From sequence record PV660448: a stretch of 64,000 nt of DNA. One strand, written 5' to 3'. This stretch comes from Escherichia phage LF82-4. The notes under the pieces are model-generated. The model saw nothing but the letters and a program-made list of their open reading frames with translations, was not told the origin of the DNA and searched no databases. The position numbers and the translations under genes were made by a program. Every line of letters starts with the position of its first letter. Positions within the stretch are counted from its first letter, which is position 1. This document shows, one piece after another, positions 59,603 through 62,667 of the stretch.

Positions 59603-59971
59603 TTAATTAAATTTGTTTAAACGTTCAATACACTGGACGTAGTTATTCGCGATTTGTTTCTGGGTAGGCTCTTTACCAGTTGTTTCAACATAGCGAATAA
59701 ATGCGATTTCAGTAGCCTGTAGACAATGTTCTTTAACGCGTTGTTCTTTTGACATAGCTACAGTATCAGAGTCACGATAACGTTGAGCATGAGCATCAGC
59801 TTGAATCATTCGATTACCTACAGTAACCGGGTCTTCCACTTCAACTTTAGGTTGGTTGTACTGTTTAACATTCGGATTGTAAATCAGTTGGCCAACGTTA
59901 TTAGGGATAAAGCCATGAGCACCACATCCGGTTAATCCAAATACCATTGCTAAAGCGATTAATTTTTTCAT
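59603..59971 (-). CDS. predicted lipoprotein (about 122 aa)
   Basis: start at MKKLIALAMVFGLTGC (lipobox) downstream of promoter 60000-60029. Confidence 0.5.
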   Translation of the reverse strand: MKKLIALAMVFGLTGCGAHGFIPNNVGQLIYNPNVKQYNQPKVEVEDPVTVGNRMIQADAHAQRYRDSDTVAMSKEQRVKEHCLQATEIAFIRYVETTGKEPTQKQIANNYVQCIERLNKFN

Positions 59972-59999: not shown

Positions 60000-60029
60000 A
60001 TAGTATCACTACCATAGACCCCTGTAAAC
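60000..60029 (-). promoter_or_regulatory. T4-type early promoter
   Basis: minus-strand GTTTAC-N18-TACTAT. Confidence 0.5.
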
Positions 60030-60041
60030 AATTATTTTATT

Positions 60042-60182
60042 TTATTCCTCGTCTTCATGCTCGTAAGCATGTTCTTCAGATTCACGGTCGCAGTCTAAAC
60101 AAGTCGCATTATCATATGCATCGAAAACAGCTTCGTCTTCATAGACGCTACAACCACACACTACACATTCTACTTCTTCCAT
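60042..60182 (-). CDS. small zinc-ribbon protein (about 46 aa)
   Basis: CVVCGC...CLDC plus acidic tail; start at internal ATG adjacent to dmd stop. Confidence 0.35.
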   Translation of the reverse strand: MEEVECVVCGCSVYEDEAVFDAYDNATCLDCDRESEEHAYEHEDEE

Positions 60183-60183
60183 T

Positions 60184-60387
60184 TTAGATTTCCTCTTTAC
60201 GCCAATCGGATTCAAAAACTTTCTTATCATCAACAAATGCTTCAACTAAAGCTTTATTTACTTCAGCAAATTGAGAAGTGGCCCATAGGATTTGGTCTTT
60301 ATCAGACACGTCCATGGTAACTTCTTTGGTAAACATATTCCCATTTTCAAACCAACCAATAAACAACACTTTAGCCATATTTTCCAT
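60184..60387 (-). CDS. dmd: Dmd (antitoxin against host RnlA/LsoA RNases)
   Basis: 67 aa from MENMAKVLFIGWFENGNMFTKEVTM...; recalled similarity to T4 Dmd. Confidence 0.65.
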   Translation of the reverse strand: MENMAKVLFIGWFENGNMFTKEVTMDVSDKDQILWATSQFAEVNKALVEAFVDDKKVFESDWRKEEI

Positions 60388-60388
60388 T

Positions 60389-60706
60389 TTAGATTTCCTC
60401 ACAGAAGGCCCATTCAGCGTGATAAACTGTAGCACCTTTAGTATCATTCATTTGAACTACGTCTACCGGAGAAATTACTCGATAGAGACGTGGTTCACCT
60501 CCATAAGAGCGTGCTGCTCGTCCTGCATAAATCTTTGCTAAACCGATATCTTCAGTAAAGAATACACGATCCAAGTTTTTCTTACGTCCAGTTTCAGACA
60601 GAACTCCTGTTTCTTCAGGAGGACAAAGCATGTTTTCGATGTTAGCTGAACTACTTGAACCGTGATAAAAAATCTTAAATTCTGCTTTACAATCGATGGT
60701 TTTCAT
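60389..60706 (-). CDS. hypothetical protein (105 aa) with Y-H-G-S motif; not present at this position in T4
   Basis: ORF track; KIFYHGSSS...RLYRV pattern. Confidence 0.45.
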   Translation of the reverse strand: MKTIDCKAEFKIFYHGSSSSANIENMLCPPEETGVLSETGRKKNLDRVFFTEDIGLAKIYAGRAARSYGGEPRLYRVISPVDVVQMNDTKGATVYHAEWAFCEEI

Positions 60707-60732
60707 TTTGTTCTCCAGTAGTTGATAGGTCT

Positions 60733-60761
60733 ATAATAACACAACTACTGGAGAAGTAAAC
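60733..60761 (-). promoter_or_regulatory. T4-type early promoter flanked by 12-bp inverted repeat CTCCAGTAGTTG/CAACTACTGGAG
   Basis: minus-strand GTTTAC-N17-TATTAT. Confidence 0.5.
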
Positions 60762-61136
60762 TTAAAAACGTAATTTAGATATATCTGCGTTGATTTCGTT
60801 TTGGTTTGCGTCGTATGCAATTAAACGAACCGCTTTAGATGGGTCATTCAATGCATAGAAATGATGGAACATTGCTCGAACGATATCACCATTTACGAGT
60901 TCTACCTGGATAGGAGAACCTTTTTCGAGTTGGAAATGTTCATAAGCTTTGATGGTTCGCAGATAATCAAGTTTTTGATTTCCGGCTCCGACAATTTGTA
61001 CGATACGTTTGCCCATGTTTTCCATACGAGATACAATAGTTTTAGGGGCAAGAATAACGTAGGTTGCCAGTGGAGAAACTACTTCAACAGTTGTGTTTTC
61101 TGTGATTGCAGTAAAAATTGCTTGAGACATATTCAT
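60762..61136 (-). CDS. hypothetical protein (124 aa); not present at this position in T4
   Basis: ORF track. Confidence 0.45.
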   Translation of the reverse strand: MNMSQAIFTAITENTTVEVVSPLATYVILAPKTIVSRMENMGKRIVQIVGAGNQKLDYLRTIKAYEHFQLEKGSPIQVELVNGDIVRAMFHHFYALNDPSKAVRLIAYDANQNEINADISKLRF

Positions 61137-61195
61137 AATGTTTTCCTCTTGGTTGGTGTAAGTTCATCATATCATGCCTAGAGGAAGATGTAAAC

Positions 61196-61218
61196 CCCGA
61201 AAGGAGACCGAAGTCTCC
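61196..61218 (-). terminator. hairpin GGAGAC-CGAA-GTCTCC after gene 41 (palindromic; T-run is on plus strand)
   Basis: third copy of the GGAGACCGAAGTCTCC element. Confidence 0.45.
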
Positions 61219-61224
61219 TTTTTA

Positions 61225-62667
61225 TTAAAATTTTAACTCGTTGGCTAAGCTATCTAGGTCAGCACGTGTTGCTTTGGCTTTACCTACGCGTTCCGTACGA
61301 TTCACCTCTGCCTGACGCATCTGAGCACCTGCGTTTTCATTTACTGTGTTAGGTGTGTTCATGCCTTCTTGCTCAATCTCAATCCATTTCTGGTTACCTT
61401 TACGTACACCCATCAGGAATTTATTCCACTTATTCTTATCACCATATCGTGATTTGATTTGTTTGATAAGTTGTTGTTCGGCTTGTGCAAGTTCTTCGGT
61501 TTCAATTACAGCCAACATGAAATCTGCTGTCGCCGGTAAACCTGCTGATTCTGCAATATCGCTCATGTTCATGTCTGAAGCATCCCATGCTGCACGTCCT
61601 ACTTGAGCTGCAGTCCATAGAACTGTTTCAGATTCTACTGCTAATGCACGAAGTTCTTCTGCGATAGCTTTAACTAATGTGTAACTATTTTCAGTGTAAA
61701 CTCTGATACGACAAGACCCACAAATACCTAAGTAATCGACTATGATTACAGACGGCACAAAGTTCTTCTTGAGTTTCAATTCATTAAGCAATGCACGGAA
61801 TGTATTAGCATTAGCTCCGCCAGTAGGATACTGTTTGACTACTAAACGTCCTAATGTTGATTTTGAACGCCATTTTTCCATCTTGGCTTTATATTCAGCA
61901 TAAGATACGTTACCATCATCGATATCATCGAGCGATACGTCAAGCATATTTGCATCTATACGCTTAGCACAAACTTCTTCAGCCATTTCCATGGAAATAT
62001 AAAGAACATTATGTCCTGTTTGAAGATAATCTGCAGCAAGTGAACAAAGGCCTAAAGATTTACCAACGTTAACACCGGCCATTAAAACGTTCAGTGTACC
62101 TTTTTCTGCACCACCTTTGGTGATTTTATTAAGAATGTTTAATTTGAACGGGACCTTACGTGCTTTATTTAGATAAGAAAGCCAGCGTGCTTCGTAGTCT
62201 TCCATCCAGTCATGCCCAACATAACTATCAAACGAAATTGAAAGTGCTTGACGCATAATATCAGGAATAGCTCCTACGTCAGGCATTTTCTTGTTACGTT
62301 GTTCTGGAGGTAGTTCAGCATTAGACTGAATCTCAATGATTTTGGATGTAGCATTATACATCGCTTTTTGCTGGACATACTTCTCAGTTTCTTTAACCAA
62401 CCATTCGTGGTCTTCAGGAGTATCAGCCAATTTTTCAATTAGGTCTGAAGTTCCTTTATATTCAGCTTCAGTTAAAGAACTGTTATCTAAAGCCACCTTT
62501 AATGCATTGATAGATGGCATTGCATTATATTCGTTAACGTGGCTCTTTATAATTTTAAAGACATTTTTTGCCGGTCCACGCTCAAAGTAATCAGAATCCA
62601 TATAAGGCCAGACCTTAGAAAAATAAGCCTGGTCGTATACGAGATGAGACAAAATAATTTCTACCAC
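61225..62667 (-). CDS. 41: replicative DNA helicase gp41 (DnaB family)
   Basis: 480 aa; Walker A GVNVGKS. Confidence 0.9.
   Translation of the reverse strand: MVEIILSHLVYDQAYFSKVWPYMDSDYFERGPAKNVFKIIKSHVNEYNAMPSINALKVALDNSSLTEAEYKGTSDLIEKLADTPEDHEWLVKETEKYVQQKAMYNATSKIIEIQSNAELPPEQRNKKMPDVGAIPDIMRQALSISFDSYVGHDWMEDYEARWLSYLNKARKVPFKLNILNKITKGGAEKGTLNVLMAGVNVGKSLGLCSLAADYLQTGHNVLYISMEMAEEVCAKRIDANMLDVSLDDIDDGNVSYAEYKAKMEKWRSKSTLGRLVVKQYPTGGANANTFRALLNELKLKKNFVPSVIIVDYLGICGSCRIRVYTENSYTLVKAIAEELRALAVESETVLWTAAQVGRAAWDASDMNMSDIAESAGLPATADFMLAVIETEELAQAEQQLIKQIKSRYGDKNKWNKFLMGVRKGNQKWIEIEQEGMNTPNTVNENAGAQMRQAEVNRTERVGKAKATRADLDSLANELKF

Follow-up and report, generated by a model that had tools for sequence, protein, structure and literature searches.

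T-even phages are the classic viral ADP-ribosylation system, with the ADP-ribosyltransferases (ARTs) Alt, ModA and ModB. All three are early or injected enzymes of host take-over, 200–680 aa long and members of the R-S-E clade (PMC5512222 and background knowledge). Arr (PDB 2HW2/9IAF; PF12120; integron Arr-2/Arr-3) is a rifamycin-modifying ART of ~140 aa that acts on a hydroxyl group. The RNA 2'-phosphotransferase Tpt1/KptA (PDB 9LD3, 7KW9) acts on phosphate and has two lobes, the N-terminal one binding RNA and carrying most of an Arg-His-Arg-Arg tetrad. AcrIF11 (PDB 6KYF/8DWQ), an anti-CRISPR ART of phages and plasmids, targets Asn250 of Cas8f; it has a helical target-recognition insert and a catalytic D115 (or D146/E147). 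ART-PolyVal domains (PF18760; Iyer et al., 2017) occur in giant proteins delivered by virions or by conjugation, and proteins of this polyvalent architecture have been proposed to be delivered together with the invading DNA (PMC5512222).

Accessory genes of T4-like phages may be organized as PeSL cassettes (PMC2839356, PMC4122927; Arbiol 2010; Comeau 2014). In these, a stem-loop is joined to an early promoter of the form TTTAC(A/T)-N16-17-TAxxAT with a repeated core, in a hyperplastic region where related phages differ in which adjoining genes they carry. These papers did not include RB69-type phages; the locus described here comes from one.

Locus organization

The window is a 64,000-nt stretch of DNA from Escherichia phage LF82-4 (PV660448), a Mosigvirus of the RB69-like kind; its gp41 is 99% identical to RB69 gp41 and 86% identical to T4 gp41. 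The order of genes on the minus strand is gene 41, ORF124, ORF105, dmd (Table 1). An earlier note, made from the sequence, had placed two additional ORFs between dmd and gene 41, and both are found there. They are real genes under purifying selection, with dN/dS of ~0.10 for ORF105 (pS 0.43–0.62) and ~0.21 for ORF124 (pS 0.43–0.76 over both).

Table 1. Genes, candidate promoters and stem-loops of the gene 41–dmd region
Feature	Position	Strand	Description
dmd	60184..60387	-	Antitoxin vs RnlA/LsoA-type toxins; Pfam Dmd E=1.4e-24; phrog_2102; junction GAGGAAATCTAAAATGGAA
ORF105 (RB69ORF040c; phrog_2110)	60389..60706	-	105 aa, stand-alone, Arr/Tpt1-like H-G-[ST] type, predicted ART fold
Stem-loop I2	60706..60760	-	19-nt arms, 89% complementary; inverted repeat and RNA fold
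ORF105 promoter (candidate)	60733..60760	-	Early-type, sigma-70-like, TTTACT-16-TATTAT, TG ahead of -10
ORF124 (RB69ORF041c; phrog_10668)	60762..61136	-	124 aa, lineage-restricted
Stem I13 (weaker)	61143..61186	-	10-nt arms; in MFE fold, z = -2.3
ORF124 promoter (candidate)	61166..61194	-	Early-type, TTTACA-17-TATGAT, 10/12 matches; directly upstream of ORF124
Hairpin I20	61200..61221	-	9-bp perfect stem, UUCG loop; inverted repeat and fold
Gene 41	61225..62667	-	Replicative helicase, upstream limit of the insertion; RB69 annotation

In T4, 58 bp separate the gene 41 stop codon from the dmd start, with no gene in the gap. The two genes are thus neighbours, as the note had said, but in the opposite order: gene 41 is transcribed first and dmd follows. 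The six-frame-translated T4 genome contains no homologue of ORF105 or ORF124, at this locus or elsewhere, by tblastn and family profiles (best E 0.055 and 0.2). The locus therefore has three states: 41-dmd in T4, 41-ORF105-dmd in most Dhakavirus and 41-ORF124-ORF105-dmd in Mosigvirus. From these states we infer recombination at the stem-loop/promoter elements of ORF105 and ORF124.

Only one base lies between the ORF105 stop codon and the dmd ATG (TAA-A-ATG), so the two genes are probably co-transcribed and translationally coupled. A 19-nt perfect direct repeat (D5) covers this junction (60382..60400, minus strand), and its second copy (60177–60195) covers the junction of dmd with the next ORF.

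Promoters and stem-loops

Each ORF had been credited with an early promoter of its own, and a candidate site does lie directly upstream of each, on the coding strand. The -10 and downstream core of the ORF105 promoter is a 27-nt repeat (D1) in common with a promoter at 60000–60028, and the promoter core TATAGACCTATCAA is found 7 times in the window (expected 0.24). Taken over the whole region, promoter-like sites are not in excess (6 versus a shuffle expectation of 4.5 ± 2.0), so our promoter calls are based on position, the GTTTAC form of the -35 element, the adjoining hairpins and the dispersed core.

Stem-loop I2 is interleaved with the ORF105 promoter. Its 5' arm lies between the -35 and -10 elements, its loop contains the -10 element, and the ORF105 Shine-Dalgarno sequence GGAG is part of its 3' arm. 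The predicted RNA fold has an energy of -25 kcal/mol (z = -5.8), and none of 200 shuffles was equally stable. Hairpin I20 follows the stop codon of gene 41 directly and is immediately ahead of the ORF124 promoter, with which it forms a composite stem-loop/promoter element of PeSL type. The weaker stem I13 pairs the ORF124 promoter region with the ORF124 Shine-Dalgarno sequence (AGAGGAA). A terminator-like match within the ORF105 coding sequence (60604–60621) was taken as chance.

The locus thus has what defines a PeSL cassette: a stem-loop joined to a sigma-70-like early promoter, with repeats elsewhere in the genome and variable ORFs alongside, in a hyperplastic region. It resembles the T4-like cassettes both in promoter form with repeated core and in the presence or absence of the adjoining genes between related phages.

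ORF105 and its relation to Arr

ORF105 is predicted to be an ART-fold protein, both by its structural model and by family profiles. The AF2 model (pLDDT 85.5, pTM 0.77) has the split beta-sheet of the ART fold, with its lowest confidence at residues 38–40, in the most conserved loop of the family. A confident assignment to an unrelated fold did not emerge. In the model, ORF105 appears structurally nearest to the NAD+ lobe of Tpt1/KptA.

ORF105 itself has no match in Pfam (E ≤ 10), NCBIfam or PADLOC, and PDB searches with the single sequence or the close-family profile also gave none. The link to Arr became visible only once distant homologues from an exhaustive search (223 cluster representatives) had been added to the profile. 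This family profile aligns with genuine Arr (Arr-2, Arr-3 and mycobacterial) over 70 columns (hhalign probability 95.2%, E 2.5e-8; ORF105 residues 9–84 to Arr 12–81), and its sole match in the PDB is Arr (2hw2, 9iaf), in register. Pfam Arr-ms is matched at E ≤ 1e-3 by 31 of the 55 multidomain relatives; the best match has E 1.8e-9, and several relatives, at 26.9–31.5 bits, exceed the Pfam gathering score (GA). Among close homologues Arr-ms is reached by 2 of 34, at E 0.12 only. The note's comparison of the 105-aa product to small Arr-type ARTs is well supported by these matches, through a link that is transitive or profile-level and covers residues 9–84 only.

Alignments of the relatives with Arr-ms only ever span positions 1–67 of 99. 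Four genuine Arr proteins share an invariant C-terminal block, E-D-D-P-N...P-G-N-P-T-x-S-Y-R, that includes Asp84. The ORF105 family has no equivalent of this block or of Asp84, and every Arr alignment ends just before it. The NCBIfam rifampin_ARR equivalog (NF033144) has a cut-off of 130 bits, and the multidomain relatives score ~26 bits.

Conserved residues

The two motifs quoted in the earlier note, K11-I-F-Y-H-G-S-S-S19 and R73-L-Y-R-V77, are present, and the first was read correctly. YHGS corresponds to the H-G-S/T element, with H15 aligned to His19 of Arr. H15 and G16 occur in all 143 aligned domains, so the H-G motif is not a chance match, and Y14-H15-G16-S17 lies on predicted strand 13–18 of the model, as expected of the NAD+-contacting element that ARTs carry on strand 1. 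RLYRV, in contrast, is not a catalytic Tyr motif and pairs with the RIFIVEP strand of Arr.

Across 150 cluster representatives the near-invariant residues are H15, G16, T/S17, P29, P30, E38, R41, K43, V48, F49, T51, A57, Y60, A61, G69 and G70. ARTs have an aromatic residue (Tyr) on strand 2 and, about 10 residues further on, a second one that stacks on nicotinamide. Arr Tyr49 is matched by F49 of RVFFT (Phe in 140 sequences, Tyr in 9), which retains the aromatic ring and loses the hydroxyl. Y60 is kept in 145 of 151 aligned sequences. An invariant acidic/basic loop, S37-E38-x-G-R41-K-K43-N44, characterizes the family, and the canonical acidic residue of protein-modifying ARTs is absent. The C-terminal half of the family has no invariant acidic residue and no canonical strand-5 Glu/Asp/Gln: the predicted fifth strand of the model begins at position 93, which is Thr here (T 56, E 19, S 15 in the family), and D82 is matched by Asp or Glu in just 71 of 151. 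E103 was considered as a general catalytic Glu and rejected, being invariant in the T4-like clade and absent across the wider family. We also set aside the equation of E38/R41 with Arr-ms E40/R43 given by hmmsearch; these residues are loosely conserved in genuine Arr and shifted in the hhalign alignment.

ORF105 is 84–90% identical to its Dhakavirus homologues, versus 68–69% for gp41, and its dS is lower (0.65–1.3 versus 2.0–2.7). Lateral exchange at a more recent date, in place of tighter constraint, could explain part of the lower dS.

Comparison with other ARTs

ORF105 differs from Arr in more than length. The homology covers the first two-thirds of Arr only, Phe replaces Tyr49, the Asp84 block is missing and scores stay below the NCBIfam equivalog threshold. 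Its loop (GRKKN) is longer, strongly basic and near-invariant, and its context is the early operon of a lytic phage and not a resistance cassette. Compared to Tpt1/KptA, ORF105 entirely lacks the N-terminal RNA-binding lobe and with it the two-lobe architecture, nor does its sequence detectably match Pfam PF01885. AcrIF11 has no sequence similarity to ORF105, which has no conserved counterpart of the AcrIF11 insert or catalytic residues. Like Alt, ModA and ModB, ORF105 is predicted to act early; unlike them it is of the H-G-[ST] type, at most half the size of ModA and absent from T4. ORF105-type domains are carried by the same giant proteins as ART-PolyVal but form a separate ART family, matching Arr-ms and not ART-PolyVal, and ORF105 is here a free-standing early gene without fusion.

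Distribution and domain fusions

ORF105 homologues were found in 609 phage records, from phages of Escherichia, Klebsiella, Acinetobacter, Aeromonas, Vibrio and other hosts. ORF124 homologues were found in 134 records of few lineages, and every one (down to 35% identity) is immediately upstream of an ORF105 homologue, with dmd next. Most Dhakavirus, and also Slopekvirus, Lazarusvirus, Biquartavirus and Vibrio phages, have ORF105 without ORF124; ORF124 is not needed wherever ORF105 occurs. The association of dmd and ORF105 may be plain synteny, since the ORF105 neighbourhood is variable outside Tevenvirinae. A conserved partner gene beside ORF105 (macrodomain, NADAR or immunity gene) was not found in six genera, and the genomic context of two distant relatives (P0168, P0127) is uninformative.

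Fusion partners of ORF105-type domains are ART-PolyVal, NUDIX, 2H/Acb1-like phosphoesterase, portal, tape-measure, CHAP, GNAT, Toprim, LPD23 and ddrB-ParB domains; ART-PolyVal adjoins the ORF105-type domain in 8 of 55 multidomain relatives. Occurrence in polyvalent proteins and in portal and tape-measure fusions speaks for a general role as an early effector.

PADLOC has no match for ORF124 either, and PHROGs 2110 and 10668 are both annotated 'unknown function'. We searched the literature on RB69ORF040c/041c, on Arr-like phage ARTs and on Mosigvirus counter-defence; no functional study came to light, and HIDEN-SEQ covered T4 and Bas37 only. Absence from T4 probably explains why ORF105 was never studied.

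ORF124

The ORF124 model is poor in the N-terminal half and shows an SH3/Tudor-like beta-barrel in the C-terminal half, for which fold searches returned generic SH3/Tudor-like barrels only. Pfam, NCBIfam and PDB sequence matches to HSBP1, YmzC, phosphoheptose isomerase and dehydroquinase were dismissed as noise. Neither these databases nor the fold searches support an ART role. ORF124 evolves faster than ORF105 (dN/dS ~0.21; identity 35% versus 84–90%). A role as a non-enzymatic binding protein is probable.

Proposed role and alternatives

We consider it fairly probable that the locus consists of two independent accessory cassettes and that ORF105 is a minimal Arr-homologous ART of early host take-over or counter-defence. 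The two cassettes would occupy the hyperplastic region between gene 41 and dmd, each with its stem-loop and early promoter. The product of the downstream cassette would be ORF105, a minimal stand-alone ART-superfamily protein homologous to the N-terminal two-thirds of Arr, predicted to form one transcription unit with dmd. Soon after infection it would bind NAD+ through H15-G16-S17 and the aromatic pair F49/Y60, and move ADP-ribose onto a host or defence-related target. Its acceptor may not be a protein side chain but a nucleophile of another kind, for example the end of a nucleic acid or a small molecule, because the canonical acidic residue is missing, the invariant acidic/basic loop is there instead, and the relatives modify hydroxyl (Arr) or phosphate (Tpt1). 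The second cassette would encode ORF124 as a separate, fast-evolving SH3-barrel protein. The earlier note thought an anti-defence role plausible from the proximity of Dmd; such a role is suggested by the predicted early expression, the one-base dmd junction and the fact that virion-delivered polyvalent proteins also contain the domain. A bolder version, to which we give a small chance, makes ORF105 the smallest active ART known, with the E38/R41/K43 loop in place of Glu, a non-protein acceptor and a place beside Dmd in an anti-abortive-infection module. It would then belong to an effector family widespread among T4-like phages and polyvalent virion proteins. Acceptors could be phosphate ends of RNA or DNA, or immune signals derived from nucleotides, and ORF105 with the coupled Dmd could neutralize toxin- or signal-based abortive-infection defences.

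Phages deploy small binding proteins against NAD-derived signals, and ORF105 could likewise be a catalytically dead ART fold whose effect comes from binding: it might act on NAD+, ADP-ribose or an ADP-ribose-derived immune signal as a sponge or decoy, or inhibit a host protein by docking to it. Its very small size, the Phe at the Tyr49 position and the want of an invariant acidic residue at the canonical catalytic position would fit. We regard this as unlikely: H-G-[ST] in all 143 domains together with a charged loop of near-invariant E38, R41 and K43 is a pattern seen more typically in active sites than on binding surfaces, Arr and Tpt1 are the nearest relatives and are active though they also lack the canonical Glu, and polyvalent proteins place the domain amid enzymatic effector domains. 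On another reading ORF105 would be a Tpt1/KptA-like enzyme that transfers ADP-ribose onto an RNA or DNA phosphate (a 2'-phosphate or 5'-phosphate end). That reading has a slim chance; its role would be RNA repair, or the capping or blocking of nucleic-acid ends after attack by a host ribonuclease toxin.

A two-component system, in which ORF124 would regulate the ART, serve as its immunity protein or be its targeting subunit, would account for the invariable position of ORF124 directly upstream of ORF105 and then dmd. It is improbable all the same, as ORF105 often occurs without ORF124 (609 versus 134 records), each gene has a separate promoter and hairpin, and the evolutionary rates are far apart. 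Homology to Arr, GenBank labels and the Arr-family ARTs noted in some actinophages (PMC9503650) could be taken to mean that ORF105 is a true rifamycin-modifying Arr. This is extremely unlikely: the rifampin_ARR cut-off is far from reached, the Arr-ms match stops at position 67 and leaves out the Asp84-containing block, and a strictly lytic coliphage would gain little from rifamycin resistance.

On the reading of ORF105 as an Arr-homologous ART, it would be a fourth ART-fold protein of T-even-type phages, much smaller than Alt, ModA and ModB and unrelated to them. If active, it would define a minimal catalytic ART unit. It may also extend phage-host NAD+ conflicts to a new class of acceptor, because its nearest relatives act on hydroxyl and phosphate.

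Many therapeutic phages of Klebsiella, Acinetobacter and E. coli carry a gene of the ORF105 family, and several family records in GenBank are labelled 'rifampin ADP-ribosyl transferase'. The sequence comparisons do not support this label, which could lead to therapeutic phages being wrongly flagged as carrying an antibiotic-resistance gene.

Gene content and conservation

As the earlier note proposed, two additional ORFs lie between the antitoxin gene dmd and the replicative helicase gene 41: ORF105 (105 aa) and ORF124 (124 aa). Both are real genes. They belong to phrog_2110 and phrog_10668, respectively, each labelled 'unknown function' in PHROGs. Homologues at this locus in T4, which the note took as counting against its proposal, are lacking: tblastn and family-profile searches of the T4 six-frame translation found neither gene, and 58 bp separate the gene 41 stop from the dmd start. 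All genes of the region are on the minus strand, in the order uvsX, 40, 41, ORF124, ORF105, dmd, and a single base separates the ORF105 stop from the dmd start (TAA-A-ATG). The window is an RB69-like Mosigvirus; over 60000-61300 it matches Escherichia phage LF82-9 at 100% identity and most other Mosigviruses at 93-95%.

Genes, promoters and repeats of the dmd-gene 41 region, with copies of the promoter core
Feature	Position	Strand	Remarks
Gene 41	61225-62667	-	replicative helicase
Hairpin	61200-61221	-	9-bp perfect stem, UUCG loop; directly after gene 41 stop codon
Promoter TTTACA-17-TATGAT	61194..61166	-	predicted; after UUCG hairpin, then ORF124
ORF124	60762-61136	-	RB69ORF041c; 'hypothetical protein' in RB69 reference genome
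Promoter TTTACT-16-TATTAT	60760..60733	-	predicted; upstream of ORF105, within inverted repeat
Inverted repeat, 19-nt arms	60706-60760	-	RNA fold -25 kcal/mol, z = -5.8
ORF105	60389-60706	-	RB69ORF040c; 'hypothetical protein' in RB69 reference genome
dmd	60184-60387	-	Pfam Dmd E=1.4e-24
Direct repeat, 19 nt, perfect	60177-60195 and 60382-60400		flanks dmd
46-aa acidic protein	60042-60182	-	directly after dmd
PeSL-like promoter	60000-60028		
Counterpart of RB69 imm.1	59603-59969	-	downstream of PeSL-like promoter
TATAGACCTATCAA(CTA) copies	18538, 35229, 35550, 47291, 52518, 59986, 60719	-	

A homologue of ORF105 is present in 609 phage records, mostly at >60% identity; the hosts include Escherichia, Klebsiella, Acinetobacter, Aeromonas, Enterobacter, Cronobacter and Vibrio, among others. 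ORF124 homologues are found in 134 records, almost all Mosigvirus, and form only six protein clusters among 5.8 billion sequences. Against Dhakavirus-type homologues, dN/dS is about 0.10 for ORF105 (pS 0.43-0.62, amino-acid identity 84-90%), about 0.21 for ORF124 (pS 0.70-0.76, identity 35-36%) and about 0.10-0.13 for the essential helicase gp41 (pS 0.70-0.73, identity 68-69%). Accessory ORF105 is thus far better conserved between the two genera than the helicase it adjoins. Since dS is also lower for ORF105 (0.65-1.3) than for gp41 (2.0-2.7, saturated), recent lateral exchange may add to its high identity, beside constraint. The identity reflects either extreme constraint or transfer between lineages later than the divergence of the core genome.

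Relationship to Arr

Taken alone, the ORF105 sequence has no match in Pfam, NCBIfam, PADLOC or PDB. When 1.84 billion cluster representatives were searched exhaustively by profile, 223 relatives came up, many of which carry the ORF105-type domain within proteins of 270 to 3,900 residues. In 31 of 55 long relatives, the homologous segment matches Pfam Arr-ms, the rifampin ADP-ribosyltransferase (Arr) family, at E<=1e-3 (best 1.8e-9), several above the gathering score. A PDB search with a profile including the long relatives returned Arr only (2HW2, 9IAF). Aligned by hhalign to four genuine Arr proteins from plasmids (Arr-2, Arr-3, Enterobacter Arr and mycobacterial Arr), the family profile matches over ORF105 residues 9-84 with 95.2% probability (E 2.5e-8). 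Further down the ranking of ADP-ribosyltransferase (ART)-fold resemblances come diphtheria toxin, OspC3, PARPs, pertussis-like toxins, DarT and ParT/RES. Within the ART superfamily, ORF105 is a minimal member that is widespread and under strong constraint; its family is homologous to Arr yet distinct, with an unusual active-site composition. The Arr resemblance that the note had drawn loosely from short motifs was largely right. The RLYRV part of its pattern is not a catalytic tyrosine motif: the alignment places it on the next strand, equivalent to Arr R-I-F-I-V-E-P.

The partner domains of the 55 long relatives are ART-PolyVal (8/55), NUDIX and DUF7178 (3/55 each), GNAT and Toprim (2/55 each), and tape-measure, lambda-type portal, LPD23, CHAP, 2H/Acb1-like phosphoesterase and ddrB-ParB (1/55 each). 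One protein of 954 aa (P0168) joins a lambda-type portal, an Arr-like domain and a 2H/Acb1-like phosphoesterase; another of 1955 aa (P0165) has ART-PolyVal, Arr-like and NUDIX domains, and in a third of 3735 aa (P0141) the Arr-like domain adjoins ART-PolyVal. These fusions have the architecture of polyvalent proteins, which are proposed to enter together with the invading DNA and to modify targets in the host (PMC5512222). Fusion to domains of the NAD/ADP-ribose network may hint at the product of the ART domain. Where viral NAD+/ADP-ribose systems were surveyed in 2022, Arr-family ARTs were mentioned only for Sinorhizobium phage PBC5 and a few actinophages (PMC9503650). Our literature search found no paper on the ORF105 family. 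The fold is of a known enzyme kind, already recognised by some annotators; the family, which T4 lacks, is uncharacterised and unusually well conserved, and can be tested directly.

Active site and possible function

ARTs hold NAD+ through the histidine of H-G-[ST] and aromatic residues of strand 2 and a helix, and a glutamate or aspartate polarises the ribose and the acceptor. Arr His19 aligns with ORF105 H15, and Arr Tyr49 with F49 of the R-V-F-F-T segment (140 aligned representatives have Phe here and 9 have Tyr). Near-invariant among 150 representatives are H15, G16, T/S17, P29, P30, T33, E38, R41, K43, V48, F49, T51, A57, Y60, A61, R/K63, A64, G69, G70 and P72. The C-terminal half has no conserved acidic residue in these representatives. 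At the canonical catalytic position, the start of the fifth strand, ORF105 has Thr (family: Thr 56, Glu 19, Ser 15), and E103 is conserved in the T4-like clade only. The NAD+-binding half of the site is thus kept and the usual catalytic acid replaced, possibly by the invariant S-E38-x-G-R41-K-K43-N loop, which is the lowest-confidence segment of the structure model. ORF105 could instead be a catalytically inactive binder of NAD or ADP-ribose, though this is the less likely reading.

If the domain is an active transferase, a non-protein acceptor is a serious possibility, since its two closest relatives, Arr and the RNA 2'-phosphotransferase Tpt1, both lack the classical glutamate and act on a small-molecule hydroxyl and an RNA phosphate, respectively, and ORF105 has four conserved basic residues. 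ORF105 does not qualify as Tpt1 itself, since it lacks the N-terminal RNA-binding lobe. That it is a rifampin Arr is very unlikely. All alignments are confined to positions 1-67 of the 99 in Arr-ms and end just short of the Arr-invariant block E-D-D-P-N...P-G-N-P-T-x-S-Y-R, the site of Asp84, which has no counterpart in the alignments or conserved positions of the ORF105 family. ORF105 does not match the NCBIfam rifampin_ARR equivalog (cut-off 130 bits), and relatives score about 26 bits.

Several GenBank submitters label homologues 'rifampin ADP-ribosyl transferase' or 'ADP-ribosyl transferase' (e.g. PP444686.1, PP526028.1, NC_018855.1), and such labels stand on several records of therapeutic-type phages of Klebsiella, Acinetobacter and E. 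coli. Because of the failed equivalog and the missing C-terminal block, these comparisons do not support the 'rifampin' label, which could wrongly mark such phages as carriers of a resistance gene.

The best-supported guess for the role of ORF105 is anti-defence or host take-over. The ORF105-dmd pair is kept in Mosigvirus and Dhakavirus, and this linkage is suggestive of a common function. Lazarusvirus also has the homologue next to helicase gene 41, between it and primase gene 61, but without dmd. Slopekvirus, Biquartavirus and one Vibrio phage carry it at other locations, and no conserved partner gene was found in those neighbourhoods.

Promoters and cassette exchange

A separate early promoter for each ORF, also anticipated by the note, fits the two promoter-like sites. 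The 3' arm of the inverted repeat ahead of ORF105 holds its Shine-Dalgarno sequence. If it works as in e, soc and similar genes of T4, the hairpin would hide the ORF105 ribosome-binding site in read-through transcripts, and transcripts from the local promoter would expose it.

The seven copies of TATAGACCTATCAA(CTA) in the window (up to three mismatches) compare with 0.24 expected. Both copies that were inspected coincide with the -10 and the downstream portion of early-type promoters, and one copy lies 733 bp downstream, ahead of an imm.1-like gene (27-nt repeat). The sequence is probably the conserved core of the window's early-promoter or promoter-early stem-loop (PeSL) elements. In their stem-loops, early-type promoters and repeated core, these elements agree with PeSL cassettes, proposed drivers of modular gene shuffling in hyperplastic regions of T4-like genomes (PMC2839356, PMC4122927).

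Three states of the locus, 41-dmd (T4), 41-ORF105-dmd (most Dhakavirus) and 41-ORF124-ORF105-dmd (Mosigvirus), are consistent with stepwise gain or loss of cassettes. All ORF124 homologues that were found have gene 41 on one side and a homologue of ORF105 on the other, but ORF105 is widespread without ORF124. ORF124 is treated here as a separate cassette, most likely encoding a binding protein.

The window's Dmd is 54% identical to RB69 Dmd and 86.7% identical to that of RB7 and IME340; around it, ORF105, ORF124 and gp41 share 99-100% identity with their RB69 counterparts. The direct repeat flanking dmd, GAGGAAATCTAAAATGGAA, comprises a stop codon, one base and the next start. It looks as if dmd alone was swapped as a cassette, by recombination at gene junctions. 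The 46-aa protein after it has two CxxC pairs (MEEVECVVCGC...CLDCD; phrog_13952, E 9e-29) and is probably a zinc ribbon. DNA similarity to most other Mosigviruses ends below about 60204, so this segment varies among close relatives. In the positional counterpart of RB69 imm.1, the protein start, MKKLIALAMVFGLTGC, resembles, in translation, a lipoprotein signal that includes a lipobox.
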